NCBI GenBank assembly: GCA_016198755.1
Contig: JACQIB010000005.1
Coordinates: 48,931-112,930, forward strand
Direction of reading: 5' to 3'
Source of the DNA: Candidatus Aenigmatarchaeota archaeon
GTDB lineage: Archaea; Aenigmatarchaeota; Aenigmatarchaeia; Aenigmatarchaeales; JACQIB01
Length of the DNA: 64,000 nt
Shown here: positions 1 through 24,372 of the stretch, piece by piece
Layout: each line of letters starts with the position of its first letter
How positions within the stretch are numbered: position 1 is the stretch's first letter
Position numbers and translations under genes: made by a program
The notes under the pieces: generated by a model
The model's input: the letters and a program-made list of their open reading frames with translations, nothing else
Database searches by the model: none
What the model was told of the DNA's origin: nothing

Positions 1-222
1 CGGATTTCCCTGCCCCTTGTATACAGCTGTAAATTCTCCTGGAGAAACTGAAGCTATGCTTATTGCTGTTGAAATAAAATTCTGGGCCTGTATAGGCTCT
101 GCATATAACTGCAGAATTGCTGCGTTGGAAGCCACACCATCCGGACCAAATACTGTCCACAAGATAACTACAACCAGAACAACTTCTGTAACAATATTGA
201 AGTATACTCCTGAGCTTGCCAT
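1..222 (-). CDS. partial small protein with hydrophobic N-terminal helix (continues past left edge)
   Basis: ATG at 222-220 opens a stop-free minus frame running to nt 1 (MASSGVYFNIVTEVVLVVVILWTVFGPDG...). It is absent from the ORF track because it has no stop in the window. It lies 3 nt after the stop of the 226..576 gene on the same strand. The + ORF 17..229 is its antisense shadow. Confidence 0.4.
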   Translation of the reverse strand, partial: MASSGVYFNIVTEVVLVVVILWTVFGPDGVASNAAILQLYAEPIQAQNFISTAISIASVSPGEFTAVYKGQGNP

Positions 223-225
223 ACA

Positions 226-576
226 CTAAGATTCTGCACGTGAGAACAAAAGGCTTTTGGTTGCTCCCCCCAGCATGCTGAAAATAACCATTATAGCTGG
301 CCCAAGCAAAAGAGAGAGGAAGTCTGAGGTTGGAAGGAAAATAAAAGGTAAAAATTCAGACAAAATAGGCAGGGAAAAATAAACAATAAGGAAGAGAATG
401 CCTCCGAAAATAGAGGCTATAAAAGCGCTGAAAATATTTTTTGTAAAAGTTGGGCCGCGAGCTCCCAAAAATCCAGTTGCTGCACCTGCAATAATAAAGT
501 TCCATGGATAAATAAAAAACCCTAGCAAAAAGCCCAAACCAGCTCCTGCTATAGTTCCATAAAAGATATTTTTCAT
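226..576 (-). CDS. small polytopic membrane protein, unknown function
   Basis: 116 aa, ATG start, about 4 Gly/Phe-rich hydrophobic segments. Its start overlaps the stop of the upstream 846-aa gene by 4 nt (translational coupling). Confidence 0.6.
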   Translation of the reverse strand: MKNIFYGTIAGAGLGFLLGFFIYPWNFIIAGAATGFLGARGPTFTKNIFSAFIASIFGGILFLIVYFSLPILSEFLPFIFLPTSDFLSLLLGPAIMVIFSMLGGATKSLLFSRAES

Positions 577-3098
577 TTTACTGCCTCTTTTTTAGTTGTA
601 GTTGTTTCTGAGGGAATAAGTGCTTCCCTCATTTTCTCTGGTGTAAGGCTTGAGAAAGTTTTTGACATATCCTTTGGCCAGCTTATTGTACCCTCCCAGA
701 AGGCTTGGATTAAGGTTGCAGGATCAGCCTCTGAAAACCCCGACTTAACAAGCGCTTTTGTAGCAGTGCTTTCCCCTCCTGTCAAAACCGCCTCCACAAC
801 TGTTATTATGTCACTGGTCCCCCAGATTTTCAGATACTCGCGAGCATAATCAACATCCACATAACAATAGTTTGAAGCTTTATCCCCCAAATCTGTTTTG
901 TCCATTGCAACAAAAACTGTTGGCTCACCCTCATAATCCTGAACTTTCCAGATTTTTGCAGTGCCCATACAGGGTCCAACCAAATGGAAGCGGGGATTGG
1001 GGGGGATTGACATTAGCGCAGCCTGTATTCCTGCAAACCTTTCTAACCCAAGCGGTCTCCAGCTGCGCACAAAAAACTTTTTAGAATCATTGTTAAGGTA
1101 AATAGGTTTCTCAAACCTCTGCCCATGTGCATACAAACATATAGAATTATCTGTGCAGGTCTCTTCTACAGTAGCCTGTGTTATTTCTCCTTTCCACCAC
1201 CAGCCGCGCACATTTGCAAACGCAGTTACATCCAGAGTCACTACTTTATTTACCTCCAGCTTACCAAACTGCATTGGTATTGTTACTGGGAGCGCATTTG
1301 TGTTCTGCTCTGCAAAACCTATGAACCGCATTCTTTCTACTGGAGCTGTGCCAACAACGTTCCCTGCATCATCTAAAATTTCCTGCTCCTTGAAAACATA
1401 ATTATCCAAATAATCCCCATAGTAAGCTTTTGACCATTCATAATTGTCAGATTTCATTGTATTTTGCGCCAGCTTGGTTATCCTGTTTATCTCCTCCTCT
1501 GTAGGTGCTGATGTCTTATACACAATTTTTACCTTCTGCCCAAGCGTTTGTTTTGAAATACGCTGCTGCACTTCAAAAACAAAATTCTCGTCCACCACTC
1601 TCGCAGGATCTTCCTCAAACATTTCCTTTATTATTTTGTATTGCAAAAGCTTTGAGTCACGCGGAATAAACGCTGATTGAGCAGTGTTTTCTGAAAGCTG
1701 TCGCAAGTATTTCTGGAAAACTGTATTATCTACATAACTCTCAGACTTGAAACCAAGCTTTTTGGCAACAGTTGCCTTAAGCCTTGTGTAGGGGTGGATA
1801 GCCTCCAGTTTTGCCCAATTTTCCGCAGTCATCCTGTCTCCAAGCGCATCCACAAGTCCATTCCTTTCCACATAATCCATATTATGCCTCTCCACAGCAT
1901 ACCCAAGACTGCTCAATGAAATTTTAAACTTTTCCCACTTCTGTATAAGTGGTTTGTATCCTTCCTTGAAAAATTGTGTCTGGGAAATTTCAAACTCACG
2001 TACAACACGCGCAGACGTCACATCCTTGTAATGGATAAGGTCTTTGTCTTTCCAATCTGTAGAAAACATTTTCCTGAGCCTTGCAGCCTCATTAGGCTCT
2101 GCAAAATCATTCAAATACGTTTCGAAAAGCTCTGTTGGAGTATATTGAAGGGTTCCGAAGCCTGCCGGAGGTATTGGATCCATTGTTTCGGCTATTTCAA
2201 TTATTTTTCCCCCCTCTTCTTTGAAGTGTATATACCTTACTGTTCCATCATTGTCTATAATCTGTAGTGGTATTTTCTTTTTTGATATTGGAATTTTCCC
2301 GTCATTTGTAAGTACTGAAAAAACCTTAATTCTCGACCCCTCTGGTATTTCTCCTGCAAGCTCTGCAGAGCCCAAATCAGCAATATACACAGAATCATCG
2401 AAAAAGCCTATTTTTGAAAGGGATCCCACTTCTGTTTTGCCTATCCTTTTGTAAGCTGTGGTTACAAGCATGTCTATTCCTCTCTCCTGCTTTTTTGCTA
2501 TTATTGATGGATCCAGATTCAAATCCTTCGAAAGAGCTTCACCCCCGCCGCGTGCATTCTTTTCAACAAATTCCACTCTTTCAGAATTTTTTATGGCTGC
2601 TCCAGCAGAGCGGAGGAATTGATTGGTTTTGTAACCAGCTTCCGCTGCTCCGCGTCCAATTATTTTCGAACCCCCAACCAGAAGTGCTTTTCCAGAGCGG
2701 AAAGCTCCCCAGAAAACTAACTGCCCGCCTGCTCCACCGCTCCATGGATAGCTCTCTTCCCACATTGCAGCACCACCTGAGAAAAATCCCTCCGGAAAGC
2801 GCTCATAATAAACCTGATACTGCGGAACAGAACCCCCCCAGAAAGCTCTCCAATATCCTTCAAGTCCATCAGTGTGTTCTTGGCAGAGCTTTACATCAGC
2901 TGTATCATAGTAAATAGGATCTGTTGGCTGGGAATCTCCATTCCAGTAAGGGAAATCTGGAGAGGAAACTCTATCTACTCCTCTGGAAAGCCCAAGAGCT
3001 GTCTGGTTTGCCAATCCTGTACATTCCACAGAACCGAAAACATTCATTAAAACAATAAACAAAGCAAACAAAAACAATATTCCAACAACAACCTTCAT
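573..3098 (-). CDS. large N-terminally anchored or secreted surface protein, unknown family
   Basis: Long ORF. The track start at 3113 is GTG. The ATG at 3098 gives MKVVVGILFLFALFIVLMNVFGS (signal/anchor helix) with GAGG 7 nt upstream. It has a Gly-rich segment (GGAAMWEESYPWSGGAGGQ). It is the last large gene of the pilus-like operon. Confidence 0.8.
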   Translation of the reverse strand: MKVVVGILFLFALFIVLMNVFGSVECTGLANQTALGLSRGVDRVSSPDFPYWNGDSQPTDPIYYDTADVKLCQEHTDGLEGYWRAFWGGSVPQYQVYYERFPEGFFSGGAAMWEESYPWSGGAGGQLVFWGAFRSGKALLVGGSKIIGRGAAEAGYKTNQFLRSAGAAIKNSERVEFVEKNARGGGEALSKDLNLDPSIIAKKQERGIDMLVTTAYKRIGKTEVGSLSKIGFFDDSVYIADLGSAELAGEIPEGSRIKVFSVLTNDGKIPISKKKIPLQIIDNDGTVRYIHFKEEGGKIIEIAETMDPIPPAGFGTLQYTPTELFETYLNDFAEPNEAARLRKMFSTDWKDKDLIHYKDVTSARVVREFEISQTQFFKEGYKPLIQKWEKFKISLSSLGYAVERHNMDYVERNGLVDALGDRMTAENWAKLEAIHPYTRLKATVAKKLGFKSESYVDNTVFQKYLRQLSENTAQSAFIPRDSKLLQYKIIKEMFEEDPARVVDENFVFEVQQRISKQTLGQKVKIVYKTSAPTEEEINRITKLAQNTMKSDNYEWSKAYYGDYLDNYVFKEQEILDDAGNVVGTAPVERMRFIGFAEQNTNALPVTIPMQFGKLEVNKVVTLDVTAFANVRGWWWKGEITQATVEETCTDNSICLYAHGQRFEKPIYLNNDSKKFFVRSWRPLGLERFAGIQAALMSIPPNPRFHLVGPCMGTAKIWKVQDYEGEPTVFVAMDKTDLGDKASNYCYVDVDYAREYLKIWGTSDIITVVEAVLTGGESTATKALVKSGFSEADPATLIQAFWEGTISWPKDMSKTFSSLTPEKMREALIPSETTTTKKEAVK

Positions 3099-3117
3099 TG
3101 CTTCCTCAGGCACTCTA

Positions 3118-3384
3118 TCACCCTGCGCAGCCGCAGGTTTTGTTTACCTGCTGCTCAGTATATCCAAGCCTGCTTTGCAAATCCCCAAAAGTATACTGCT
3201 CATTGCACTGTATGTTATAATTTTTACAGACAGGTGCAAACTTTGAACAGCAGGCTAAAAGGGCTCCATAGTCTCCGCCCTGTGATATAGGTAAGTATAC
3301 AAAAAAATAAAGTATTGCAGACAGTGCAACTATTAACACAAGCACTATTATAAGCGCTGTTGTTGTGTTTATTGGCATCTCCAT
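3118..3384 (-). CDS. prepilin-like small protein, Cys-rich C-terminus
   Basis: 88 aa: MEMPINTTTALIIVLVLIVALSAILYFFVY followed by a soluble part with 6 Cys. 4-nt gaps to both neighbours. Confidence 0.6.
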   Translation of the reverse strand: MEMPINTTTALIIVLVLIVALSAILYFFVYLPISQGGDYGALLACCSKFAPVCKNYNIQCNEQYTFGDLQSRLGYTEQQVNKTCGCAG

Positions 3385-3388
3385 GATA

Positions 3389-3754
3389 TCACTTCACAGC
3401 AATATTTGAGCTACATATCTGCCCGCAGTTTGCCTTGCACTCATTCCATGCTGCGGAATCTGTCTCCCCAAAGTCTGAGATAGATCTTCCTGTCCTGTCA
3501 GAGCAGAACTGGCGCAGCCCAGGCTTTGTTTTATCCCCAGGAACCTCTATAAACCTCTGATCTTCAAGTATTCCTGCAGAAACTTTACATCCAACCTGAG
3601 CCCATTTCCCGCAATAATTCACTTTATTCACATCATCCCCGGGTTTTTGGCCAAGCTGCAGGGCTATTACAGCAATTGCCCCTACTATAATAACTATCAC
3701 AGCAAAAATAACAAAGTTCTTAAGTGTGCTTGGTGCTTCAGAATCCCCTTTCAT
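3389..3754 (-). CDS. prepilin-like small protein, Cys-rich
   Basis: 121 aa. It starts MKGDSEAPSTLKNFVIFAVIVIIVGAIAVIAL, a short charged N-terminus followed by one hydrophobic helix. The soluble part has 6 Cys. Confidence 0.6.
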   Translation of the reverse strand: MKGDSEAPSTLKNFVIFAVIVIIVGAIAVIALQLGQKPGDDVNKVNYCGKWAQVGCKVSAGILEDQRFIEVPGDKTKPGLRQFCSDRTGRSISDFGETDSAAWNECKANCGQICSSNIAVK

Positions 3755-3786
3755 GGATTTAGGTAGTATTTGATAGGAGATAAACC

Positions 3787-3915
3787 TTACGCTGGGTTTA
3801 AATTTCCTAAATAAGGCAGAACAAACAGGGTTATTACAGCCACAAGCACTATTACAGCAGCTGACATTATCAGTATTTTTGCGAGCAGCATTATATCCCC
3901 CTTTCCTATTTTCAT
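3787..3915 (-). CDS. 42-aa single-helix micro-protein (not in ORF track)
   Basis: My translation: MKIGKGDIMLLAKILIMSAAVIVLVAVITLFVLPYLGNLNPA*. Its ATG overlaps the TGA of the upstream gene (ATGA). Confidence 0.4.
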   Translation of the reverse strand: MKIGKGDIMLLAKILIMSAAVIVLVAVITLFVLPYLGNLNPA

Positions 3916-4217
3916 GTGCTCACCCTTTTTGCCGGCTTGCAGTATGTGCCTTCACATACATTTCCCGCCGGACAGTCCTTTCCTGAAGCACAGCCGCACT
4001 GTTTTTCAGAAATTCCTTCACTCGCTCTTACTATACAAATGAACCCTTCTGGGTTGTCCTTACAGTTATCATTTGTTGAGCAAGCAGCTGTCAGAGTTGT
4101 ACTTGTGTTTCCATCTACAGGCCTGTTGTACAGATTCTGGGAAAAAGCTAAAACAACCATAATAAACACTAATATTCCACCAACAAGGAGTGCAGCTTGG
4201 TCAAAATCTCCCTTCAT
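3912..4217 (-). CDS. prepilin-like small protein, Cys-rich
   Basis: The track start at 4226 is GTG. The ATG at 4217 gives MKGDFDQAALLVGGILVFIMVVLAF with GGGTGA 6 nt upstream (SD-like). The C-terminal part has 8 Cys (CSTNDNCKDNPEGFIC...CGCASGKDCPAGNVCEGTYC). Confidence 0.6.
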   Translation of the reverse strand: MKGDFDQAALLVGGILVFIMVVLAFSQNLYNRPVDGNTSTTLTAACSTNDNCKDNPEGFICIVRASEGISEKQCGCASGKDCPAGNVCEGTYCKPAKRVST

Positions 4218-4222
4218 TTTAT

Positions 4223-6046
4223 TCACCCTGTTACTTTTACTGTGGCTGTGTTTATAATGTTGCCCTGTCCCGTAAGCCTTACAAATCTAAATGGATCTGC
4301 TATAAAGGTAGTATCTTTAGTGAAATTCTGCCCGCTTGTTCTGTACAGTTCTTTCCATGTTTTTCTATCAGTAGAAAACTCAACTTTAACTTCATCTCTG
4401 GAAGAGAAAGTTGCTTCTATACTGGCAGAGAGTTTTGTATATTCTTTTCTCAAATCAAACTCTATTTTATCTTTCCCGCAATCATCTCCCAAAGGAACCC
4501 CATTACCGCAGCTGTCTGTTCCGACAATTTCCCCATCCCCCTCTGCAGGCAGTATTACTATAGACCTATCCAAAGCCCCAGCCCTTTTTGCAAATACACC
4601 AGCCTGTATAAGCTTTGGGTCATCTAGGCTGCAGCGCTGAAAATCTGATGTCTTCCGATAAAAACGTTTCCCATCAAAACAGAATGGCTTTCCATCCCCC
4701 TGTCTCTCCTCTTTGAACTCTCCTGCAATGTCCCAATTGAAAATATATATTGTATAGGTTTTCCCTGCATCAAGAGTGGAGAGTGGAGATAACGCAGTTA
4801 TGTGATTTATACCTCCCTTCCCAAGAAACTGCGCAGCTTGTGTCCCTCCACTCTTATAAAATAAGTTTACATTAAGCTTGTTCCCGTTCTCATCTTCCCT
4901 TAGCTGGACCTGTTGGTATTCAGTTATGTTAGAAGCTGCTTTTCCTATACACTCTTCCTTGTTATTGCAGGTTCCAATATCAAAATCAAATCCTGATTTA
5001 TCCTGTATCAATCCTACAAAATCCTCTATAGAAATGCTGTTTGTTACAGAATAATCTGAAATCTCCGTTAGTCTGAGCTCAGGTATCAATGAGCCTGCTT
5101 CTTCTGTTCTCTTAAAGTTTTTCAGATAATAAGAAAGCTGGTCTGCAACAGCTCCGCTTGACAGTGAAGGCTCTGAAGAGTGCTTTGGTATGCGCAGAAA
5201 ATCTATATTGTATTTACAGCCTGAACCGCATTTCTTTTCCTTTGGATTCTCATATGGAACCCATTTAACAAGGTAAAGCATGGTATTGGAACTTGGATAA
5301 AGGGAGGGGGGGCTCTTTCCTTTTTCAAGTTTGTCTGAAACAAGATAAGAACTGTTTGTTATATCAGTCTGCCAGACTGTTATTTTGTCTTCCCCGCCAC
5401 AAAGAGAAGAACAGCTCTCACCCTGCAACGGGCTGGAAACAGAATCTGTTCCAAAGGTTTGTGAACCAACAGAAACGCAGTTGCTGTTCCCAAACTTTAA
5501 GGTTTCCAAAGAATTGTGCACAAAGCGGGAAAGTGTTCCGCAGATTTTCTGACCTGAAAATTCTCTGAGGGAAAGTTGTTTTGTAAGGCATTGTTCATCT
5601 AACAGCGGGGAACACGGAGAGCATGATTGAACAGTTAACTTATCCCTTTCTTTCTGGGATAAATCATTATAATAGACAGGCCTCTGCTTTTCAGAATTCC
5701 ATGGAACATCAAATGTACCCCAGCCTACAATACTGTCTTTGCTGAAAGGAAGGGAAGCACCATGTGGATAGTTGCCGTTGGAAACAAAATCAGATGATAT
5801 ATCCTTTGCTATTTTACATGAAATCTGTGAACTTGTAAGCGGCTGTCCATCCTCTGTTAAATTTATCTGAGGCACAACACCAAGCATATCCAGAAATTCA
5901 AAACCATTTGGAGTTTCAACCCCTGGTTTTGTAGGGAAAGGATTAAAATCCAAGTTAATTAGCTTCAAGAAAGATCCAAAGAGTAAAAGAGCTATAACTG
6001 CTGCAACAACAATAACAAGCAGTGTTATAGTACTAATCCTGTCCAT
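4223..6046 (-). CDS. surface protein, paralog 1 of a Cys-framework family; C-terminal beta-sandwich (F5/8-type-C/CBM-like) tip
   Basis: 607 aa with N-terminal helix MDRISTITLLVIVVAAVIALLLFG. It shares ordered motifs with the next two genes (SCKIAKDISSDF; CSPCSPLLDEQCL; GKTYTIYIFNWD). The C-terminus ends ...DPFRFVRLTGQG, reminiscent of discoidin-type domains (weak call). Confidence 0.85.
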   Translation of the reverse strand: MDRISTITLLVIVVAAVIALLLFGSFLKLINLDFNPFPTKPGVETPNGFEFLDMLGVVPQINLTEDGQPLTSSQISCKIAKDISSDFVSNGNYPHGASLPFSKDSIVGWGTFDVPWNSEKQRPVYYNDLSQKERDKLTVQSCSPCSPLLDEQCLTKQLSLREFSGQKICGTLSRFVHNSLETLKFGNSNCVSVGSQTFGTDSVSSPLQGESCSSLCGGEDKITVWQTDITNSSYLVSDKLEKGKSPPSLYPSSNTMLYLVKWVPYENPKEKKCGSGCKYNIDFLRIPKHSSEPSLSSGAVADQLSYYLKNFKRTEEAGSLIPELRLTEISDYSVTNSISIEDFVGLIQDKSGFDFDIGTCNNKEECIGKAASNITEYQQVQLREDENGNKLNVNLFYKSGGTQAAQFLGKGGINHITALSPLSTLDAGKTYTIYIFNWDIAGEFKEERQGDGKPFCFDGKRFYRKTSDFQRCSLDDPKLIQAGVFAKRAGALDRSIVILPAEGDGEIVGTDSCGNGVPLGDDCGKDKIEFDLRKEYTKLSASIEATFSSRDEVKVEFSTDRKTWKELYRTSGQNFTKDTTFIADPFRFVRLTGQGNIINTATVKVTG

Positions 6047-7395
6047 TAACCCACCTCAAATAGAGAAACAGAAACATCCCGCAGCTTGTTTTCTTTTATT
6101 ATTTTCCCTTTATCCTGCCAGTTCTCCCGTATACAGTCCCTCTTTGGCTTGCATTCGCTGTCACAAGAATTTGTATCTTTTGTGCAGGCACCGCAGGTTG
6201 GATTTCCGCCGCAAGCGCCAGTACAGTCAGTTGTTTCCCTTTCAGCTGTTATACCCCACTTCCTTATTATAACTCTATACTGTTTTCCAGCCTGCAAAGT
6301 CCCGCTGTCCGAAACAGTTGTGTACAAGTTAAGGTCGTTATAGTTTGGATCCTCATATGTACATACACCTGTGGTTTCCTTCTTGAAAAATCCTTCAGGC
6401 TTTACATTTATACAATCCTCCCCTGTACATGCTCTGTACTTTACGTCATATTTTGTTATTTCTTTTACTTTCTGTGCAAAAGCCAAGAAAGAAATATCTG
6501 CTGAGGGTGTAAAGTAAAAATCTTTCTTTTCCCTTATACCCTCTGTATAGGCGCCTGCAGTTTCAGATCTGGCTGCTGATTTGAGAACATTACCTACAGT
6601 CTCACCTAATTGATCTGCTTCAAAATTCCCAAGCTGTTCTGTTTTTGGGACGCGGGGAAAGTGGAGATTATATGTTTTGCTTGCGCTATCCCAGTAAAGA
6701 ACATAAGAATAGGGCCTTCCATCCTGCACAAGTGCAGATTCTGTATAGGAATCTGAGGTAACCTCACTCTCAGATGTAACATCAGCTTTCCAGTCCTTTA
6801 TCATATCCCCCCCAGGGCAGGTCTCTGAGCAAGCCTGACCAGAGCTGAAAGAAGCACAGTGATCGTTTCCGAACTTTACAAGATCCCCGTTCTGGCTTGA
6901 TATAAAGTTTCCGCAGAGTTTTATCTCAGAAACATTCAAAATTCCAAGATTCGCAGAAACACAGGCCTCATCAAAAACCGAAGGACAGGGAGCACAGATA
7001 GAATTTCTCAAAGTATTTTTCTGTTTTTCTGTGAGTGTCCAGTCTGAACTAAGGTTGAAAATCCCGCCTGAAACAATGCAGGTTCCAAGGAAACAGAATT
7101 CCCTCTGCCCCTTTGTCCCGTATTTTGAAATATCCAATGCAAGGTCCTTTGCTATTGAACATCCAACCTCTGAGGAGGCAAATGTTGGGGAGGAAGAGCT
7201 GATAGGTCTGTAAACCTCAAAAATACCGGGAAAGTCTGCACGCGGGAAAACTGGTAAGGTTGTCCTTGTTGTAACTATTGTTGTTGGAACATTGGGGGGG
7301 TGTAGAGAAAAATATGGAACTGCTATTGCTATTGTTATGCCAAGTGCAACAATGCCCATAACTACTGCGAACAGTTCCCATTTTGTTATTTCCAT
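6046..7395 (-). CDS. surface protein, paralog 2 of a Cys-framework family; Cys-knot-like C-terminus
   Basis: 449 aa with N-terminal helix MEITKWELFAVVMGIVALGITIAIAV. Motifs: GCSIAKDLALDIS; CAPCPSVFDEACV; GKQYRVIIRKWG. The C-terminus is TDCTGACGGNPTCGACTKDTNSCDSECKPKRDC. 1-nt stop/start overlap with paralog 1. Confidence 0.85.
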   Translation of the reverse strand: MEITKWELFAVVMGIVALGITIAIAVPYFSLHPPNVPTTIVTTRTTLPVFPRADFPGIFEVYRPISSSSPTFASSEVGCSIAKDLALDISKYGTKGQREFCFLGTCIVSGGIFNLSSDWTLTEKQKNTLRNSICAPCPSVFDEACVSANLGILNVSEIKLCGNFISSQNGDLVKFGNDHCASFSSGQACSETCPGGDMIKDWKADVTSESEVTSDSYTESALVQDGRPYSYVLYWDSASKTYNLHFPRVPKTEQLGNFEADQLGETVGNVLKSAARSETAGAYTEGIREKKDFYFTPSADISFLAFAQKVKEITKYDVKYRACTGEDCINVKPEGFFKKETTGVCTYEDPNYNDLNLYTTVSDSGTLQAGKQYRVIIRKWGITAERETTDCTGACGGNPTCGACTKDTNSCDSECKPKRDCIRENWQDKGKIIKENKLRDVSVSLFEVG

Positions 7396-7515
7396 TTACC
7401 CCCACCCGAAAAGCTTTGGGATATTAGCTCCGCCAAAGACAAGGAATAATGCTGCCACAAGCACTATTATAAAAAATACTATAATACTATAGCTCTCTGC
7501 CCAAACATTGCTCAT
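7396..7515 (-). CDS. 39-aa single-helix micro-protein (not in ORF track)
   Basis: My translation: MSNVWAESYSIIVFFIIVLVAALFLVFGGANIPKLFGWG*. It starts 2 nt after the stop of the 729-aa gene. Its TAA directly abuts the ATG of the 449-aa gene. Confidence 0.4.
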   Translation of the reverse strand: MSNVWAESYSIIVFFIIVLVAALFLVFGGANIPKLFGWG

Positions 7516-7517
7516 AA

Positions 7518-9707: not shown

Positions 9708-9744
9708 GGATTAGAATTAGTATAACCTGATTTATAACCCTTTT

Positions 9745-9957
9745 CTATACAGGTATGGAAGCACAGGCTCCTGATCCAAACTGAAATTGTGGGCCAAGAG
9801 GCAGCCAGAATATAACAGGGCAGATTATGCTGCTTAGTATAGTTCTGTTGAAAATTATTAATATCACAGCTATTACAATAACTGTTATTGCAACATATAT
9901 CAGTATATCCGGGGATTTCTGCACAGCCTCTGTTTTTGCCTCATCTTCTTGCACCAT
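9745..9957 (-). CDS. small membrane protein (prepilin-like?)
   Basis: The track ORF 9745..9987 overlaps the upstream gene. The internal ATG at 9957 gives MVQEDEAKTEAVQKSPDILIYVAITVIVIAVILIIF..., an acidic head followed by a hydrophobic helix. Confidence 0.45.
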   Translation of the reverse strand: MVQEDEAKTEAVQKSPDILIYVAITVIVIAVILIIFNRTILSSIICPVIFWLPLGPQFQFGSGACASIPV

Positions 9958-9965
9958 TGAAACAC

Positions 9966-10178
9966 CTAAATTATAAGCCAGGCGCACTGGCTCTTTGCAT
10001 CAGAAAAGGGTGGGGGCTTTAAAATACCTTTCTCATGGGCCTGTATACATAATCCTCTAAAGGGCGGGGTTCCGCCAGTGGAAGAGAGAAAAAAGCCTAT
10101 GAAAAGAATGGAAGCTACAAGAGCTACCAAAATTAAAATAACCAGATTCGCACCAGACATCATTGGCCATGTAACCAT
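9966..10178 (-). CDS. prepilin-like small protein
   Basis: 70 aa: MVTWPMMSGANLVILILVALVASILFIGFFL, then a short soluble tail with 2 Cys. Its ATG directly abuts the stop of the upstream micro-ORF. Confidence 0.5.
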   Translation of the reverse strand: MVTWPMMSGANLVILILVALVASILFIGFFLSSTGGTPPFRGLCIQAHEKGILKPPPFSDAKSQCAWLII

Positions 10179-10328
10179 TTATCTCAACCTGCTCCCCCAT
10201 TTTAAAAACTCCCAGATTTTATTCATAGGAATGACCTGTGTTAGTATAATAATAGAAATAATAACAGCAAATACAACCAAGAGTATTACGAAAGCAGGCC
10301 TTGTTGCAAATTCTGATCTTGTCTGCAT
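10179..10328 (-). CDS. 49-aa prepilin-like micro-protein (not in ORF track)
   Basis: My translation: MQTRSEFATRPAFVILLVVFAVIISIIILTQVIPMNKIWEFLKWGSRLR*. It has a charged head plus one helix and is tightly packed between its neighbours. Confidence 0.4.
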   Translation of the reverse strand: MQTRSEFATRPAFVILLVVFAVIISIIILTQVIPMNKIWEFLKWGSRLR

Positions 10329-10329
10329 T

Positions 10330-10500
10330 TTAAACACCCAGAACAGCCCTTATAGGGTATAGCAGCCCTGAGGGGTTTGTTATTGTTGTTTTTTGGGAAA
10401 GTACAAAAGCCAAAATAAGTGCAACAATTATACCTAAAGCTGCCATAAGGAATATAAAATTCCATGCACCCTCATGCAAAGTTTCTATATCAAAAGCCAT
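10330..10500 (-). CDS. 56-aa single-helix micro-protein (not in ORF track)
   Basis: My translation: MAFDIETLHEGAWNFIFLMAALGIIVALILAFVLSQKTTITNPSGLLYPIRAVLGV*. Its ATG overlaps the TAA of the platform gene by 1 nt (TAATG). Confidence 0.4.
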   Translation of the reverse strand: MAFDIETLHEGAWNFIFLMAALGIIVALILAFVLSQKTTITNPSGLLYPIRAVLGV

Positions 10501-12803
10501 TATTTTCCACCTATTGGTACAAGCAGCGGTGCTATAGTGCTCCCAAATACAAGGGAACTTATGCCCCAGCTTACTATGTATACTATTATCCCGAATATTA
10601 ATGTTGTGCCCATTGTCTCCCTTAACCCTATCTCATCCTCTCCGTTCTGTAACCTGTTAAGGAAATAAGCTAACAAAGCAACAGTTTCAATCATATACAG
10701 TCCAACAACCATCTGGAAAGCGCCTGCGGTTATTGGCACTGAACAGCCCCCAGACCCTTGGCACCATGGAAGAACTAATAATTGCTGGGGAGCTGAAACC
10801 GATGCTCCAGTGTTAAGTATGTCATTATACTGAACTCCAAACTGGGTTAAAATCTGTATTATAACCATTGCCATTGTAACAGTTATTCCTGACACTAGAG
10901 GAGCCAAAAACACTGAAAGAAACTTCATACTGGAAATTGTATCCCCTAAAATCTCCTCCAAATCCTCTTTTAGAGTGTGCAAACCTTTCAGGTAGCGGGA
11001 AATTGTAACCATTGCAACAGAAGCTGTTTGCATCCCTTTCTTTCCTGCTTCAGCTATAACTGAAAGCACAGATCTTATCAGTGCTGATGGATAGTACCAG
11101 ACTGAACCAACATCCTTGTCAAACATTGCCCTTTCAAAAGTATATCCAAACTTTGTCATGTTTGCTGTGGTTGTTGTGAAAAGGTCTGCAACCTTCATTC
11201 CTTTTAAACCCTCCACTGACCTGCTCATTGCAGATTCTATTGGAACTCCTGTGCTTAACTGGTTTCCCAACTGGAACAAAGCTACGGAGAACTCCTCTTC
11301 TATCCTCCTTATATCCTGCCTTACTTTTGTTTTTTGATAGCTGTCTAAAATTCCATAAACAGCAGCTGACAATCCAAAGCTCAGTGGCAAAGCAAGAGAC
11401 AGGCTTGTTTCAACTCCAGTTGTAAGCAAAGCATACAAACCTAAAAGAAAGAGGGGAAGGAAAACTGCAAGTGCTACCGGCCAGACAGGCGTTTCTTTTC
11501 CGGATAAAAAGAATTTTCCAAGCCGTGGAACCCCTTTAGCTAAAGAAATATCTGGCTGGGAAAAGGTTGAGGGCTGGGCTTCCAGTGTTTTGTTTATTAT
11601 AATCCAGAGGAAAGCTGGGAGAGCTATATCGTACATTATAAACAGGTACTCGGGTTTTATTGATTTTGCCAAAAAAATTACAACTATTGGGAACAGAACC
11701 AGCCCCATTACCGGAAGCAGGATTCCCATAGCATGTATAAGCATTATTGGCATGCGCAGGTTTCCTATGAACCTTTTTGCGCGCTCTCTTGTGCCATCCA
11801 GAATAACTGAGAGTGTTTCATCAAAAAGCTCATCTCTCCTTTCAGCCTGCACTGCACTTCCCCTCAAAAGGTTCAAAGCTTCTGAAAAGGGTGGGTTTCT
11901 TTCCTTCCATCTCTCCAAATACTGCCCAAGAGCAGCATCAGCATTTGAATAAGTGCCTAAATTTATTCCCCATAAAAGTTTTTTCAAATCCCAGCTTAAC
12001 GGACCGCGCAGATTTTCTGAGGCAAACTTCAATGCCCCCTCTAAATTTGGGCTTCCTCTCATGTAAATAATCATGTATAAAACACAGAGTATGCTGTCAG
12101 AACCCATTTTCATTGTTAAAACTCTTGAACGTGAAGCAGGGTAAGTTAAAACAAAATACCATGCAAAAATTGAGGATAGGAAAAAAATAAAAAACCCAAG
12201 GAAATCGGGCTTCCCGTTTACACCCAAAAGAGCTCTTCCCTCCCAGCTATAGCTTATAGCCCTCTCATATCTTTTGTCCTGCAAAGCCTGTTTTGCGCTC
12301 TGTAGTGTCTGTTTTGCAAAATCCAGCTTTTCCTTTGTTCCTGCTGTGCTTCTTGTACTCTTAACAAGTTCATCAAAATCACCAACCATGATTACAGCGT
12401 TCTCTTTTGTAGGAGCCGGCTGTATAATATAGCCTGAAGCAAGATAGGCGAAGGAAAAAATCATTAAAATTAAAAGTGCTATAATGGACAGAGCATAAAC
12501 TCCGCGCGCACTTGTAACCATGTACGCATCATCTATATCCTTCTGCAGGCTTTTTTCTGTTTTTTCACTGGGCTTTATTCCCAGTACTTCAGCTCTCAGC
12601 GCTATGCGCTCAAAATAGGTCTGAGGCTTCTGCCTTACTTCCTTTAAAAAATCTGTATAATCCCTCGGTCTTGCAATAACTCTCTCTTTTTTTGGAACAG
12701 AAAGCTGCTCTCTGTCCATAAGCTTTCTGAGCTTGTCCATTCTATCCTTTTCAGCCATCTCCTTTTCTATTTTCTTTTTATCCTTTCCGTCGAAAAACCC
12801 CAT
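10500..12803 (-). CDS. polytopic membrane platform protein (FlaJ/TadC/PilC-like, T2SS-F type) - assignment by topology and context
   Basis: 767 aa. A cytoplasmic charged N-terminus (KKKIEKEMAEKDRMDKLRK) is followed by many TM segments interrupted by two soluble blocks. It sits first in the operon of prepilin-like genes and near the secretion ATPase. I could not verify a diagnostic motif by eye. Confidence 0.6.
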   Translation of the reverse strand: MGFFDGKDKKKIEKEMAEKDRMDKLRKLMDREQLSVPKKERVIARPRDYTDFLKEVRQKPQTYFERIALRAEVLGIKPSEKTEKSLQKDIDDAYMVTSARGVYALSIIALLILMIFSFAYLASGYIIQPAPTKENAVIMVGDFDELVKSTRSTAGTKEKLDFAKQTLQSAKQALQDKRYERAISYSWEGRALLGVNGKPDFLGFFIFFLSSIFAWYFVLTYPASRSRVLTMKMGSDSILCVLYMIIYMRGSPNLEGALKFASENLRGPLSWDLKKLLWGINLGTYSNADAALGQYLERWKERNPPFSEALNLLRGSAVQAERRDELFDETLSVILDGTRERAKRFIGNLRMPIMLIHAMGILLPVMGLVLFPIVVIFLAKSIKPEYLFIMYDIALPAFLWIIINKTLEAQPSTFSQPDISLAKGVPRLGKFFLSGKETPVWPVALAVFLPLFLLGLYALLTTGVETSLSLALPLSFGLSAAVYGILDSYQKTKVRQDIRRIEEEFSVALFQLGNQLSTGVPIESAMSRSVEGLKGMKVADLFTTTTANMTKFGYTFERAMFDKDVGSVWYYPSALIRSVLSVIAEAGKKGMQTASVAMVTISRYLKGLHTLKEDLEEILGDTISSMKFLSVFLAPLVSGITVTMAMVIIQILTQFGVQYNDILNTGASVSAPQQLLVLPWCQGSGGCSVPITAGAFQMVVGLYMIETVALLAYFLNRLQNGEDEIGLRETMGTTLIFGIIVYIVSWGISSLVFGSTIAPLLVPIGGK

Positions 12804-12921
12804 TCTATCTCCCAGTTTAGAATAGACTTTCCCAATATAAAAAAGCCCTAATTCACTTTCTGCCGTTGAGGCAACATTATTTATTCATGCAAATCCATTA
12901 TTTCCCAGGGAGCATGTTAAA

Positions 12922-14547
12922 ATGGGGCGCAAATCCAGCTTAACAACAGGTCAAAAGGCAAGCATAAGGCATTATGCTGAACAGGGTGAAGGACCTTCTG
13001 GTATCTCCTATTATACAGGCATTTCTCCGAGTAAGGTAAGTTATTATCTGAAATCACTTGAAAGAGAACAGGCTGGGAAAGGCAATGGAAATAGACAATA
13101 TAGAAATAGGAATGGACCTGCTCCGGTGGCTGAGACAGCTACAGAAGCTGGGAAACACGGACGCGGTCCAGGAAGAACAAGTAACTCTACAGTGTTTATG
13201 ATAGAGCAGATGGCTGCGCATGGCTATAATACTGAACAGATTTTAAATACACTGGGAGTCTCTGCTCATGTAGCAGAAAAATATTCTGATTTTGATGTTA
13301 GAGCCTATTTGGAAGCGAAAACTCCAACAGAAGCTGATGTGGAAAAGAAGGTAGATAGAAGGATATTGAGACAGGAAACAATAGAAAAAATAAAAGCCTT
13401 GGCAAGGGAGGGACGCACTATAGCCGGTATAGTGGAGGAAACTGGAGTGAGCAATAGATCTATATCCAAATATGCTGGCGCTGAACTGAATGAACGGTTG
13501 GGGGGAGAGAAGAGACAGGGAACAAGGCTGACTGCTGAAGAGAGGGAAACAATAATAGCTGCTATAGGAACAGGAAAATATTCTGGCCCATCTGAAGTTG
13601 GAAGTGAGTTTGATATTTCCTATCACACAGCAAATGCGCTCTGGAAATCAACGGGTAGAAAAGTAAGAGCTATTGGGGAAAAACCCGAAACAACCAGGGA
13701 GCGAGGCATTAGGCTGACAAAAGAGGAGGCAGCAACTATGGACATGGCTATATTGTCTGGAATATACACACACCCAGCAGATGTTGCAAGGGAGTTCCAT
13801 GTTTCTTACCAGACAGCGCGCATCCACTGGGAAACAGCTAGAGTAGCTGTTACAAAGCCAACTGTCTTGATAGAGCCTCCTAAACCAACGCCACCCAAAG
13901 ATTTGAAAATAGGGATTAGTGCTGCTAATGCTGAGCGGTTGGATACATTATGGGGACAGGGAATCAGGACAGTAAACGGGCTGCATGAGCGCACAGGGTT
14001 TAGTAGGCATATGGTTGGCAGGTATATGGAGGGGAGGGGATTGATATCAGAGAGGAGCAGGAGAGAAGAACAGATAACAAAAGATAACAGGCCTGCTATG
14101 CCACCAGTGATTCTGGAAGATCTTTCAGCTGCGATTATACTACATGCTGGGGAGAAGAAAATGGAAAAGGAAGCTGCAGAACAGACTGCGCAGCATGTTC
14201 TTAACTTTTTTGGCTACTCTAACAGGATTATAGATAATATACTGGAGCCTGAAGACAGGGACATTTTTTATATGTTAGAGGATGCTGGGATAGCTACAAC
14301 AGAAAGAGAGGAAACAACTTTATATGATGGGAGGGAATGGAGAATACACTATTGGGTGTTTAATCATGATAGGATAAAACAGATTTTGGCTCCTCTAAAA
14401 ACTGCAAAGAGAGAGAAAAGTCCTGAAGATGTGTATGAGGAGCTGGATGATGGGTTATGGCATGGTCATGGAGCAGAACCTGTTGAAGGGGTTCATGTTA
14501 CTAACGGGTTGGTAGCAGCTCAGGCTGGAGCAAGAGGCTCTGGTTAA
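12922..14547 (+). CDS. multi-HTH protein (about six helix-turn-helix-like modules plus a C-terminal globular domain)
   Basis: 541 aa. Repeated modules include GISYYTGISPSKVSYYLK, ILNTLGVSAHVAEKY, IVEETGVSNRSISKYAG, RLTAEERETIIAAIGTGKYSGPSEVGSEFDISYHTANALW, RLTKEEAATMDMAILSGIYTHPADVAREFHVSYQTARIHW and LHERTGFSRHMVGRYM. It lies on the opposite strand between the platform gene and the ATPase. Confidence 0.8.
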   Translation: MGRKSSLTTGQKASIRHYAEQGEGPSGISYYTGISPSKVSYYLKSLEREQAGKGNGNRQYRNRNGPAPVAETATEAGKHGRGPGRTSNSTVFMIEQMAAHGYNTEQILNTLGVSAHVAEKYSDFDVRAYLEAKTPTEADVEKKVDRRILRQETIEKIKALAREGRTIAGIVEETGVSNRSISKYAGAELNERLGGEKRQGTRLTAEERETIIAAIGTGKYSGPSEVGSEFDISYHTANALWKSTGRKVRAIGEKPETTRERGIRLTKEEAATMDMAILSGIYTHPADVAREFHVSYQTARIHWETARVAVTKPTVLIEPPKPTPPKDLKIGISAANAERLDTLWGQGIRTVNGLHERTGFSRHMVGRYMEGRGLISERSRREEQITKDNRPAMPPVILEDLSAAIILHAGEKKMEKEAAEQTAQHVLNFFGYSNRIIDNILEPEDRDIFYMLEDAGIATTEREETTLYDGREWRIHYWVFNHDRIKQILAPLKTAKREKSPEDVYEELDDGLWHGHGAEPVEGVHVTNGLVAAQAGARGSG

Positions 14548-16892
14548 GGAGCTTTCTTTGCCTGTTCTCTGAACCAGTTTTGCCATAAATTGAAAACCCT
14601 GTCAGCTTCTACAGAACCAACTTCCTGCCTTACTGTTTCTGAGAATCTGTGGAAAGCTTGGTTGCTTGCAACCACTGTAGGGGCTTCCAAAAGGGCTGGC
14701 TTTCCTGTGGCTCCTGCCACGCGCACAATCTCACTCAAAACTTTTGCCCTTAACTGTATATTGTCCCAGACAGAATCCCATCTGCCAGCCCATCCCGGCA
14801 CTCTTTTTGCTATATCGTTCAGTATTTGGCTTTCTCCTGTTAACAGAGTATCTGTTGGTTTTAAAGAATCTGAGCGGGAGTTATATTCTAACAGATTTAC
14901 AAATCCATGTTCTTCAGCAGGATCCTTTGTCCAGTGCTTTCTAACCTCAGTAACTTCTGTTACCCTTCTGAAACTTCTTAATCCATCAGCGCTGCGGATT
15001 TTGTTTGCAACAACAATTAAATCAGTGGCTTTAAAGCTTGTTGCAGGAACTCCTAAATCATTTACAACCCTGTCAAAAACCCCATAAGCGCTTTCCCCGT
15101 GTATAGTTCCGGCAACAACATTTGCTAAAGCTCCAATCCTCATTGCCTCGTACAGGGCTATTGCTTCTCTCGATCTTACCTCGCCAATAAACAGACAGGA
15201 ATCTCCCATTCTAAGAGCTGTTCTGATAGCCTCCTCAGCAGAAAGCTCAAGCTCAACTTTTGTTATAACACTTCTGGATTTCATTCTTTCAACATTATAG
15301 CTCAGCTTTCTCAGAGCCTCTATTGGAAGTTCATAAGTATCCTCAACTGTAATAATTCTGTAATAAGGGATAACCTGCAACATTAAGGAACCGAGTAGAG
15401 AAGTTTTTCCAGAGCCTCTGGTTCCTGCAACTAACAGTGTTCTCCCGTATGTTGTGAAAAACCAGAGCAAACCAGCTGTTAGTGGATCAAAGAAATGGTT
15501 TTGTATAAATAATGGAAATGTCCATGGTTCAAACCTGTGCCTTCTGAAAGCAAAAGCTAATCCTTCCGGTGAAACTCTTGGCCCAATAGCTGCTACTCTT
15601 GCAACACCTCCTGGAACAGATATTTCAGTGTCTAAAACAGGATTTGCCTCGTCTAATGGGCGGCCTGATAAAAGCTTAAATCTTGTTGACCATCTCTCCC
15701 CGTCCTCTTTTGTTGGAATAATATTTGTTTCACATTCATCAAATTCCTGATGTAGAATAAAAAGCGGTTGTTCACCCAATGGGCTGTTTATGTGTATATC
15801 CTGTATCTTTGAGTCTGCAAGCAAAAGCTCCAGTACCCCCAATCCTGTAGTATACCTAGTAAGTATTTGTGCTAACTCTTCAAGTTTTTCCTGTGAAAAG
15901 TTAAACCTGCGCAGGCTTGATATGTCCCTTAAAAGTTCTAGAGAAATAGAATGGAAAATATCCCTCATTTTCTCCTGATCTCTGACCTCAAACTCCTGCG
16001 GCTTTCTCTCCTCCAGAGCCTTCCTTGAATCATCCAGTACAGTATATTCTTCCTCACTCAAAACAAATTCGGGCGGAGTTATCTGGTAAATGGGCCTTAC
16101 TTTTCCAGGAACCTTAAAAATCTCAACTCTTGTTCCCCCGACATTATACTTGTCTATTATTTCCCCGCCTGCCGGAGGTTTTAACACAAACTTTGTAAGC
16201 ATAAAGTTAGGTCTTATTATTGGGTGGAACAGTTTTCTGTATACTGAACGATCCCCTATATGGTAGCCTGTTAAAAAGGGCTGGGCGTTTTTAATTAGGT
16301 CTGTTTTTCCCAAAATTGTTTTTATAGGCTCCAGAACAGCTGATAAATAATGTTCAAGCGCTTTTTTCTCCTTTTCATTTTCTGTTCTTTTCAAAATTAT
16401 TTTTATATGCCTTATTTCCCTTTCGATATCTAAATATCCTCCTATAGGATCCCCCCTCAACTGGACTGAAACAAGTGTATAAAGCCAGCTTTTCCATTTG
16501 TCGAAAAACTTGCCGGAAATGGATTTGTCCAGATTTTCATCTGATATAATTTTTTCCTCCATTACGATCCTGTTTATTGAAGCTGCAATCTGAACAAGCA
16601 TTTTTGTCTGCTCTGGACCATACTCATTTTCCCTCGTTTCTGCCATTACAACGCTTGTTACTTTTCTCTCTGAAAGCAGCTTATCTACTACCCGTGCCAT
16701 GCAAACATCAAAGTCTTCTATGCTGGAGCCAAACAATGCTCCGGAGCAGTTTATCTTCATCCTCCCATCCTTCAGTTCTGTTACCTCATAAACCAAGCCA
16801 AACTCCCCCCTTCTTTTATATATATAGGACAATAAAACTATATTTATCTTTACAGATAAAGGTTTTCCAAATGCCAGAAGTGAATCTTTCAA
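14544..16892 (-). CDS. type II/IV secretion-family assembly ATPase (FlaI/PilB/VirB11-like)
   Basis: Walker A is VAGTRGSGKTSLLGS. The Walker B/Asp-box region is ALRMGDSCLFIGEVRSREA, followed by the His-box-like VVAGTIHGES. The track start at 16892 is TTG and overlaps the divergent + gene. In-frame alternatives are TTG at 16796 and ATG at 16760, so the true start is uncertain. Confidence 0.9.
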   Translation of the reverse strand: MKDSLLAFGKPLSVKINIVLLSYIYKRRGEFGLVYEVTELKDGRMKINCSGALFGSSIEDFDVCMARVVDKLLSERKVTSVVMAETRENEYGPEQTKMLVQIAASINRIVMEEKIISDENLDKSISGKFFDKWKSWLYTLVSVQLRGDPIGGYLDIEREIRHIKIILKRTENEKEKKALEHYLSAVLEPIKTILGKTDLIKNAQPFLTGYHIGDRSVYRKLFHPIIRPNFMLTKFVLKPPAGGEIIDKYNVGGTRVEIFKVPGKVRPIYQITPPEFVLSEEEYTVLDDSRKALEERKPQEFEVRDQEKMRDIFHSISLELLRDISSLRRFNFSQEKLEELAQILTRYTTGLGVLELLLADSKIQDIHINSPLGEQPLFILHQEFDECETNIIPTKEDGERWSTRFKLLSGRPLDEANPVLDTEISVPGGVARVAAIGPRVSPEGLAFAFRRHRFEPWTFPLFIQNHFFDPLTAGLLWFFTTYGRTLLVAGTRGSGKTSLLGSLMLQVIPYYRIITVEDTYELPIEALRKLSYNVERMKSRSVITKVELELSAEEAIRTALRMGDSCLFIGEVRSREAIALYEAMRIGALANVVAGTIHGESAYGVFDRVVNDLGVPATSFKATDLIVVANKIRSADGLRSFRRVTEVTEVRKHWTKDPAEEHGFVNLLEYNSRSDSLKPTDTLLTGESQILNDIAKRVPGWAGRWDSVWDNIQLRAKVLSEIVRVAGATGKPALLEAPTVVASNQAFHRFSETVRQEVGSVEADRVFNLWQNWFREQAKKAP
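16814..16846. promoter_or_regulatory. putative bidirectional promoter (two TATA-like boxes)
   Basis: ttttatatatata (16814-16826) lies about 20-25 nt upstream of the in-frame TTG at 16796 of the ATPase on the minus strand. tatattta (16839-16846) lies 25-32 nt upstream of the ATG at 16871 on the plus strand. Confidence 0.35.
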
Positions 16893-17212
16893 CAGTGCTG
16901 AACGAGGCTTTTAGGAGGCTTAATGAAGCTTCCAGAAGATTGAGAGCTTCTGAAGAGAGGTATGATGTTCTTGAAACAAGGCTGGAAGGGCTGCAAAATA
17001 CAATGCTTAAAATCAGCGATGAGCTTTCAGGGAAGATAGAGAAAAGTTCAGGGGAACAGAAGGATTTTGAAGCAAGGTTAGTTAGGATAGAAGCAGATCT
17101 TACAAAAATTGGGCAGGCTATGGAAAAGAGCGCAAAATCCTCTGATTTGGAGGAGTTAAAGAATCTTGTGGAGCTTTATTCCCCGTTTAAAGAAAAGAGA
17201 AAGAGTGATTGA
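16871..17212 (+). CDS. small coiled-coil protein, unknown function
   Basis: The track ORF 16577..17212 is mostly antisense to the ATPase. The ATG at 16871 gives 113 aa (MPEVNLSTVLNEAFRRLNEASRRLRASEERYDVLETRLEGLQN...) with heptad-like E/K/L-rich composition. Confidence 0.6.
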   Translation: MPEVNLSTVLNEAFRRLNEASRRLRASEERYDVLETRLEGLQNTMLKISDELSGKIEKSSGEQKDFEARLVRIEADLTKIGQAMEKSAKSSDLEELKNLVELYSPFKEKRKSD

Positions 17213-17213
17213 A

Positions 17214-18374: not shown

Positions 18375-18386
18375 TTTTTCCACCTA

Positions 18387-18899: not shown

Positions 18900-18937
18900 T
18901 TTAACCAATCCTATTTTGCCTCCTATTTATTTAAAGC

Positions 18938-19414: not shown

Positions 19415-19422
19415 ATAAACCA

Positions 19423-21528: not shown

Positions 21529-21551
21529 ATTTTATCACTGAATATTAAAAC

Positions 21552-23150: not shown

Positions 23151-23181
23151 ATTTTATCACTGAATAGTAAACCTTAAATAC

Positions 23182-24369: not shown

Positions 24370-24372
24370 ATT

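Follow-up and report, generated by a model that had tools for sequence, protein, structure and literature searches.

A conserved type IV pilus-like operon with Cys-rich giant proteins in an Aenigmarchaeota genome

Core machinery of the operon

The DNA examined here (the window) is a stretch of 64,000 nucleotides from Candidatus Aenigmatarchaeota archaeon, a member of the phylum referred to below as Aenigmarchaeota; it corresponds to positions 48931-112930 of contig C3 (GenBank JACQIB010000005.1) in a six-contig genome of 890,842 bp that is 89% complete. Coordinates given without a contig or locus prefix are those of the window. At its beginning lies a type IV pilus-like locus—a single minus-strand operon of about 21 same-strand genes encoding a secretion ATPase, a membrane platform protein and some 19 proteins that open with a hydrophobic helix (helix-first proteins). 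Listing and translating the open reading frames (ORFs) recovered every gene named in an earlier note made from the letters of this stretch. Between the gene of a 122-amino-acid (aa) protein at one end and the start of the ATPase gene at the other, the operon measures 19.7 kb, i.e., 2.2% of the 0.89-Mb genome. The G+C content is ~0.41 throughout, with no compositional break at the locus. The earlier note let the operon end at window base 1; this extent had to be corrected, since the genes continue for ~2.9 kb further (C3:46055-49152), up to an Alba gene that bounds the operon. The additional part completes a 150-aa helix-first gene, the 5' part of which occupies positions 1-222 (minus strand), and contains five more helix-first genes, for proteins of 141, 159, 341, 102 and 122 aa. 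While the one-strand arrangement stands for the ~21 operon genes, the reported spacing of 0-5 nt gaps or overlaps does not hold throughout: the measured values range from -35 to +122 nt, which makes for a tight operon.

The secretion ATPase belongs to the GspE/FlaI/TadA family and scored 63.9 bits against PF00437 (T2SSE; cut-off 24.9). Its gene (14544-16796, minus) is contained in an ORF of 14544-16892 and starts with a TTG at 16796, which yields 750 aa; the Met of every ortholog lines up with this start, upstream of which we found TATATATAAAA and GGGGGGAG, a TATA-like run and a G-rich stretch for ribosome binding, respectively. All four catalytic motifs of the family are present, i.e., Walker A (GTRGSGKT, residue 458), the Asp box (ITVEDTYEL, residues 481-489), Walker B (LFIGEVR, residue 535) and the His box (GTIHG, residue 563); the string DSCLFIGEVRS, previously taken for the Asp box, is in fact the one that contains Walker B. 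The closest sequences in the PDB were those of afGspE (2OAP, 8e-31), CpaF (4e-20) and FlaI (1e-16). Relative to afGspE, the enzyme has ~200 extra residues at its N-terminus; it also has a short C-terminal extension. Such extensions had been listed among the atypical features of the locus; they are indeed there, yet they are nothing unusual, as orthologs of full length—the N-terminal extension included—occur in 149 of 151 phylum genomes, with 45-67% identity and almost always as a single copy. Because system-specific N- and C-terminal extensions are also typical of the ATPases of archaeal type IV filaments (T4F) other than the archaellum (PMC13705601), we regard them as a conserved family trait.

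For about 18 of the 151 ATPase orthologs, the ORF is 920-1800 aa long and the match is split near residues 487-542 (e.g., G022:C35, G103:C7 and G066:C2, and proteins P0002 and P0031), and some of these interrupted enzymes carry the intein/LAGLIDADG domains PF14890 and PF14528. The filament ATPase is thus a recurrent intein host in the phylum, at more than one site. Elsewhere in the present genome, we detected a smaller second ATPase-platform pair together with one divergent pilin-like gene (C2:188292-192655), as well as five further pilin-like genes at C2:95238-99112. A third T2SSE match, located on C6, has no adjoining platform gene and was not counted as a filament system.

The platform protein, of the PilC/TadC/FlaJ type, is encoded at 10500-12803 (minus) and comprises 767 aa with ~9 transmembrane (TM) segments. 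Two T2SSF-like regions are combined in this one gene: the protein scored 35.9 bits against PF00482 (cut-off 25.2), and a second, weaker stretch was found in a six-frame search (E = 0.0035). The proposal that this polytopic protein serves as the platform is supported by the match above cut-off, and an ortholog is present in all 18 sampled loci of the phylum. Between the platform and ATPase genes, on the opposite strand, lies a gene (12922-14547, plus) for a 541-aa protein with multiple helix-turn-helix (HTH) modules and a C-terminal DUF6015 domain (PF19479, 94.4 bits; HTH_5, 25.4 bits). The separation of the two core genes had been listed as a feature of the architecture, and here only the presence of the gene could be upheld. 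It is a singleton among the 18 related loci, and a sister strain, with an ATPase 96% identical to the present one, carries a 239-aa version of the protein at the same site (L063:3492-4211); relatives were found for the DUF6015 part alone, in 7 of the 30 related genomes, none of them close to the ATPase. The junction itself is closed (gap <100 nt) in 10 of the 18 phylum loci and interrupted in the remaining 8, where 319-1741 nt hold varied, unrelated genes (pilin, lipoprotein, HTH or HEPN-like). The HTH-DUF6015 gene is a genus-specific insertion at an often-interrupted junction and not a conserved part of the system, and on its distribution we rejected the idea of a dedicated regulator conserved with the machine. 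The 541- and 239-aa versions differ by ~300 aa of repeated HTH modules, placed between the common N-terminal HTH and DUF6015.

The small ORFs and the proteins of 449-846 aa each open with one hydrophobic helix, as previously described, and this feature is strongly enriched at the locus: it was found in 15 of 16 locus ORFs against 174 of 1027 ORFs elsewhere in the genome (Fisher p = 6e-11), and K/R-G/A directly before the helix in 6 of the 16 against 29 of the 1027 (p = 6e-6). Across the 18 loci, we examined 139 same-strand ORFs downstream of the platform gene for a leader pattern that allowed [KR] at -2 and [GA] at -1, directly before the helix. As many as 117 of the 139 are helix-first and 67 bear the pattern; among the latter, K occupies -2 in 63, G occupies -1 in 56 and the initiator Met is at -3 in 36, with a leader of 3-6 residues in 52. 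Seven proteins of the operon studied here display M-(x0-3)-K/R-G followed by the helix, namely (with a hyphen at the putative cleavage point, here and below) the 729-aa (MRG-AINTL), 121-aa (MKG-DSEAP), 42-aa (MKIGKG-DIML), 159-aa (MKQKG-IGLF), 341-aa (MRMKG-TIMV) and 122-aa (MRNLKG-VELPVN) proteins, and the product of a 104-aa ORF that measures 101 aa when read from the ATG at 4217 (MKG-DFDQ). At motif level, class III-type leaders are hence present, and the signature resembles in sequence an archaeal class III signal whose leader is unusually short.

An unlinked prepilin peptidase is usual in archaea. The earlier note had counted the lack of such a gene among its unusual points; there is none in the locus, but a PibD/FlaK-type aspartyl peptidase (family A24) is encoded on another contig (C5:178798-179562). 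It scored 28.6-29.6 bits against PF01478 (cut-off 26.5), carries the catalytic residues D22 and GAGD at 76-79, and has an ortholog in 98 of 101 phylum genomes. In all relatives checked, the gene is likewise unlinked, lying hundreds of kb from the ATPase gene when both are on the same contig.

The whole set—ATPase, platform, leader-bearing subunits and peptidase—is conserved across the phylum, and that its core is a type IV filament machine is as certain as sequence evidence allows. Of the 18 sampled loci, ~13 have an ordered layout and 3 to 4 a scattered one. Core and surface components diverge at sharply different rates: identity to the sister strain is 94-96% for ATPase and platform and 82-88% for the large surface proteins, and identity to another genus of the family is 66% for the ATPase and 25-28% for the homologs of the large proteins.

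Putative surface subunits and a probable accessory module

By sequence and placement, five kinds of subunit can be told apart: the mini-proteins after the platform, the ELP(I/V)N family, headless K-G proteins of ~42 aa, the mid-size block beside an 846-aa protein, and the Cys-rich giants. Three of the large proteins are paralogs with a common framework of ~400 aa, invariant Cys residues and divergent C-termini. The 729-aa member (7518-9707, minus; 16 Cys) carries the MRG-A leader and ends in two CARDB domains (two stretches, 1.5e-26), the 449-aa member (6046-7395, minus; 20 Cys) ends in a short Cys-rich tail, and the 607-aa member (4223-6046, minus; 16 Cys) has a differing tip with a weak discoidin-like match (F5_F8_type_C, E = 0.057) that does not reach the cut-off. 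An AlphaFold model of the 449-aa protein was confident (predicted local distance difference test, pLDDT, 77; predicted template modelling score, pTM, 0.73); in it, a helix at the N-terminus is connected by a disordered Pro/Thr-rich linker to a globular mixed alpha/beta head. A Foldseek search of the PDB with this model returned no fold match (best E 0.35, template modelling score <0.1). Exhaustive searching with the same protein in HMMER identified only 29 relatives among 1.84 billion representative proteins, which marks a very small family; word-indexed homolog searches with the alignment of the three paralogs and with the 846-aa protein (see below) gave only 3-4 close relatives. In other loci of the phylum, giants with a clear MKG leader measure, for example, 557 aa (25 Cys), 845 aa (56 Cys) and 867 aa (41 Cys), whereas the two largest proteins (1084 aa, 70 Cys; 1640 aa, 98 Cys) are helix-first and have no K-G site. 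That the large Cys-rich proteins exceed the pilin-like genes in coding length, as the earlier note remarked, is accurate, but it is conserved phylum-wide rather than being a local oddity.

Residues ~297-376 of the 449-aa protein match 17 tandem stretches in P0131, a metagenomic protein of 2738 aa, so that this sub-domain doubles as a repeat module in giant proteins. Each of the 13 helix-first proteins of the locus that contain Cys has an even number of them, and the genome encodes a membrane-anchored, DsbA-like Thioredoxin_4 protein of 244 aa with a CPFC site (C6:67515-68249); both observations make extracellular disulfide bonding of the locus proteins plausible. No convincing match to VKOR was found in the genome. 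A second Thioredoxin_4 domain ends a secreted protein of 1008 aa (C1:8599-11625) and has lost both Cys residues (DPFY).

The most widely conserved large component is the 846-aa protein (573-3113, minus), which has an N-terminal helix and 6 Cys and whose family was detected by BLAST in 8 of the 18 loci. It matched no Pfam or NCBIfam model, and its structure model (pLDDT 51) was too poor for a fold search. Its gene is adjoined by a block of mid-size genes for the 150-, 141-, 159- and 341-aa proteins; the 141-aa family was detected by BLAST in 7 of the 18 loci, and the order of 824-, 152-, 145- and 167-aa genes in the related locus L038 is the same as that of the 846-aa gene and the mid-size block here. 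A Gly-rich protein of 116 aa with three TM segments is encoded at 226-576 (minus).

Several smaller products have the appearance of pilins. A Cys-rich protein with 8 Cys is encoded at 3912-4226 (minus) and probably starts at the ATG at 4217 (MKG-DFDQ). It is followed by the 42-aa protein (3787-3915, minus), the mature part of which would comprise ~36 aa and contains no globular domain, making it by size a candidate fibre subunit similar to Flp or EpdE; 42-aa look-alikes with the same KG-D junction are present in the related loci L018 and L019. The 121-aa pilin-like protein (3389-3754, minus) contains 6 Cys. At 3118-3384 (minus) lies the gene of an 88-aa protein with 6 Cys (M-EMPINTT), which a family alignment placed in what we term the ELP(I/V)N family—proteins of ~90-130 aa with the N-terminus KG-(I/V)(E/S)LP(I/V)N and a C-terminal domain containing six conserved Cys, present as several paralogs per locus and often beside Alba. 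Of the members in this genome, the 122-aa protein is canonical and the other two have no leader. The latter, M-EMPIN (3118-3384) and M-PELPVN (C3:46464-46772; the 102-aa protein), start exactly where the mature part begins in their K-G-bearing paralogs, and they may represent 'pre-processed' subunits that do not need the peptidase. Alba genes (C3:45699-45992, before the window; L015:15456-15788; L038, 15550-15840) lie on the same strand at the end of, or embedded among, ELP(I/V)N pilin-like genes in several distant lineages, a linkage that is conserved.

Even shorter proteins accompany the platform. Four single-helix genes without a K-G leader (56, 52, 70 and 80 aa) overlap or abut one another at 9745-10500 (minus), and locus L038 has four equivalent genes after its platform gene (40, 63, 75 and 74 aa), whose products match them in their motifs at both termini; in most loci, a helix protein of 39-56 aa comes right after the platform. 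The sister strain has the 56-, 70- and 80-aa genes as well, with 86-96% identity. A further single-helix gene of 39 aa (7396-7515, minus), between the 729- and 449-aa genes, is a called gene with 85% identity in the sister-strain contig L063. Searches of Pfam and NCBIfam returned no match to pilin, archaellin or Class_IIIsignal models for any small ORF of the operon or for 45 subunits of related loci.

A conserved group of genes lies on the other side of the ATPase. Two cytoplasmic coiled-coil proteins of 114 and 216 aa are encoded divergently from it (16868-17212 and 17211-17861, plus), followed by four genes for membrane proteins (17862-20055, minus), of which three are paralogous (161-173 aa, 4-6 TM segments) and the fourth, of 210 aa, ends in a coiled coil. 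The layout of coiled-coil genes and membrane paralogs beside the ATPase exists in 12 of the 13 genomes sampled from the class as well as in 6 of 7 additional loci, and it is retained in the related locus L017 even though the platform there is not adjacent to the ATPase. The coiled-coil genes are 91-94% identical in the sister strain. Neither they nor the membrane paralogs matched any family; judged solely from synteny, they are probable accessory parts of the system.

Function, rival explanations and related systems

A life attached to hosts is assumed for the DPANN archaea, although the mode of attachment is known for few of them. We consider it likely, with good confidence, that the locus encodes the main T4F system (archaeal type IV pilus-like) of this member of the Aenigmarchaeota, a DPANN phylum whose archaea are tiny and probably depend on hosts; attachment to a host cell or a surface, and not swimming, would be its most likely role. 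The proposal of a type IV pilus-like locus that is not an archaellum holds: ATPase, platform, leaders and peptidase are all present and there is no archaellin. The platform has its T2SSF domain, class III-type leaders were found, and homologous loci contain no archaellins, which leaves the earlier proposal standing on each of the three points that it had named as decisive. An adhesion or host-contact role is plausible by analogy, and the two CARDB domains of the 729-aa protein are an adhesin-like feature in its favor. Three of the four points that had been called unusual—the missing peptidase gene, the Cys-rich giants and the ATPase extensions—are normal for archaeal T4F or occur phylum-wide, and the HTH insertion is specific to the genus.

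A possible mechanism can be outlined on this basis. The peptidase would cut off the leader of 3-6 residues after the Gly, and a hexamer of the ATPase, acting through the platform, would pull the helices out of the membrane and polymerize them into a surface fibre. The body of this fibre might consist of the Cys-rich pilins of ~100 aa that begin with KG-(I/V)(E/S)LP(I/V)N, of the headless subunits of 36-50 aa, or of both, with the 141-341-aa proteins and the 846-aa protein forming a priming or tip complex. The giants, which have 729, 449 and 607 aa in this operon and reach 1640 aa and 98 Cys in relatives, would be carried as binding heads on the fibre or alongside it, their disulfides being made by the membrane-anchored DsbA-like oxidoreductase (CPFC) encoded elsewhere, while the coiled-coil pair and the membrane paralogs beside the ATPase could act as scaffold or regulators. 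Fibre formation and the role of the Cys-rich giants as binding heads are suggested by anatomy, by the CARDB domains, by the fast divergence of the surface and slow divergence of the core, and by analogy.

Several observations weigh against an attachment pilus. About half of the helix-first proteins have no canonical K-G site, which is missing, among others, in the 449-, 607- and 846-aa proteins and in the four mini-proteins after the platform; helix-first proteins of this kind could be plain membrane anchors. With no match to a pilin model, the assignment of subunits as putative pilins relies on their N-terminal signature and gene context. Moreover, the disordered linker of ~25 residues between helix and head in the 449-aa model is unlike classical pilins. 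That linker, rich in Pro and Thr and followed by a head, would suit a bindosome-like or pseudopilus machine for display or export, in which a short membrane-proximal stub holds or releases the Cys-rich giants and no long adhesive pilus is built. The coding length of the large proteins with class III-type leaders, which exceeds that of the small pilin-like genes, points the same way, and class III-signal binding proteins have been proposed to 'functionalise' T4F machines, as in the Sulfolobales (PMC13705601). We nevertheless judge such a machine fairly unlikely, though an alternative to be taken seriously: no large protein contains a substrate-binding-protein domain in Pfam or NCBIfam, the BasE model of the bindosome scored 57.9 bits against a cut-off of 1000, no ABC transporter gene is adjacent, and the several typical small pilin-like tandem paralogs of the ELP(I/V)N family suggest a real fibre.

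Two further readings concern the same core. With its FlaI-like ATPase and FlaJ-like platform, the locus resembles an archaellum, and a reduced archaellum for motility would follow the literature: Li et al. 2021 recorded FlaG, FlaI and FlaJ in most metagenome-assembled genomes of the Aenigmarchaeota, as partial archaellum parts (PMC8407114), homologs bear database names such as 'flagellar protein FlaI', and FlaI is the best NCBIfam model for the ATPase (1e-37). However, the score against that equivalog model, 130.2 bits, is far under its cut-off of 550, and the ATPase sequence is nearer to afGspE and CpaF than to FlaI. In addition, no archaellin gene of PF01917, including the FlaF/FlaG type, was found in the genome at E <= 1, and 0 of 45 pilin-like proteins from homologous loci matched PF01917 or any pilin family. 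We therefore consider this the least probable account of the locus, and one already largely refuted. As for a competence-type pilus that takes up DNA and so feeds nucleotides to a metabolically reduced cell, the near-universal retention of the machine in a phylum of reduced genomes would fit a nutritional role, and competence pili share the same core; the absence of a ComEC-type channel (PF03772) from the genome (89% complete) and the presence of giant CARDB-bearing Cys-rich proteins, which are not a competence-pilus feature, make it highly improbable.

An adhesive pilus finds its closest parallels in other archaea. As in Pil of Haloferax volcanii, Aap of Sulfolobus and Epd ('system 1') of Methanococcus maripaludis, the locus combines a secretion ATPase, a TadC/PilC-type platform and class III-type subunits, with a PibD/FlaK-type peptidase as the required processing enzyme; some loci of this kind also encode large adhesin-like proteins with the same signal, and the short headless subunits here—the 42-aa KG-D and the 39-56-aa helix proteins—recall EpdE and Flp in size. 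Unlike system 1, which is defined by two separate platform genes, the present locus has one fused 767-aa gene, and its peptidase is never in the cluster, whereas EpdA belongs to the Epd cluster (PMC13705601). It also departs from the archaeal adhesive pili in that no subunit matches a pilin model, leaders have just 3-6 residues (MKG-), the giants contain 16-98 Cys, and two coiled-coil proteins and 2-5 paralogous membrane proteins are conserved beside the ATPase. Compared by its described features, subclade 4F (PMC4858521; PMC13705601) is similar in having an extra N-terminal domain in the ATPase, as well as an intracellular coiled-coil protein and an adhesin-like protein in the locus. In contrast to 4F, the N-terminal domain is not Cys-rich here, there are no CetZ, CBS or SMC neighbours, and the pilins are unrelated in sequence. 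A Cys-rich N-terminal domain in our ATPase, as in subclade 4F, had been considered and was dropped, its Cys residues not being conserved among orthologs.

Minor-pilin priming complexes with a large tip protein are found in bacterial type IVa pili and type II secretion systems (FimU-PilVWX with PilY1, and GspHIJK), and 'modular' pilins are known as well. By analogy, the three to four mid-size pilin-like genes beside a very large protein resemble the former, and binding domains apparently grafted onto a pilin-type N-terminus resemble the latter; however, no sequence or fold similarity to the bacterial complexes was detected, and the system here is archaeal. An ecological parallel is offered by the episymbiotic Saccharibacteria, a host-dependent lineage with reduced genomes that keeps type IV pili, which it needs for host association (PMC9894109). 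The parallel stops there, as their machinery is bacterial.

Two elements of the locus are new—the giant disulfide-rich proteins, many of them with a class III-type leader and with a confidently modelled domain that has no match in the PDB, and the conserved upstream accessory module of two coiled-coil and several paralogous membrane proteins. Makarova et al. 2016 (PMC4858521) described large putative adhesins that bear the signal, as well as Cys-rich components, in some crenarchaeal loci; for nanoarchaeal ATPases, they were unable to identify the pilins. The DPANN archaea (Nanobdellati) were described as rarely possessing an ordered T4F locus, with scattered pilins and unclear filament formation (Sivabalasarma and Albers 2026, PMC13705601). 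For this phylum the evidence points in the opposite direction: the machine is near-universal, it is ordered in ~13 of 18 loci, it takes up ~2% of a 0.9-Mb genome, and a simple MKG-helix signature serves to recognise its subunits. The apparent disorder of loci in the phylum is probably best explained by subunits that no model detects, and the reported scatter or flagellar mislabelling of such clusters probably arose because their subunits match no known pilin model.

It is possible, if somewhat doubtful, that the operon is more than this, i.e., a distinct and unclassified T4F subsystem constituting the conserved host-contact organ of the Aenigmarchaeota—an ordered operon of >20 genes with subunits missed by all current pilin models, with its own accessory module, and with rapidly diversifying disulfide-rich giants of new fold that act as tip or side adhesins and determine host specificity. 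The 'scattered, possibly non-functional' state reported for T4F genes in DPANN archaea would then be largely an artefact of detection. The analysis supplies candidates for a major pilin, a priming block, fast-evolving Cys-rich heads of unmatched fold and an accessory module, which can be used for structural work, for better search models and for host-recognition tests in enrichment cultures.

Neighbouring genes

Directly upstream of the membrane paralogs, five consecutive genes (20086-26367, minus) encode coiled-coil, Pro-rich and apparently cytoplasmic proteins of 480, 532, 395, 231 and 400 aa, which have no Pfam match; the region displays a very strong strand-compositional skew. They are followed by an AbiEi/AbiEii toxin-antitoxin pair (PF09407 and PF08843; 26704-28145, minus). 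Finally, ARAGORN called a tRNA-Asp gene at 43214-43304 (minus), which at 91 nt is beyond standard length and probably contains an intron.

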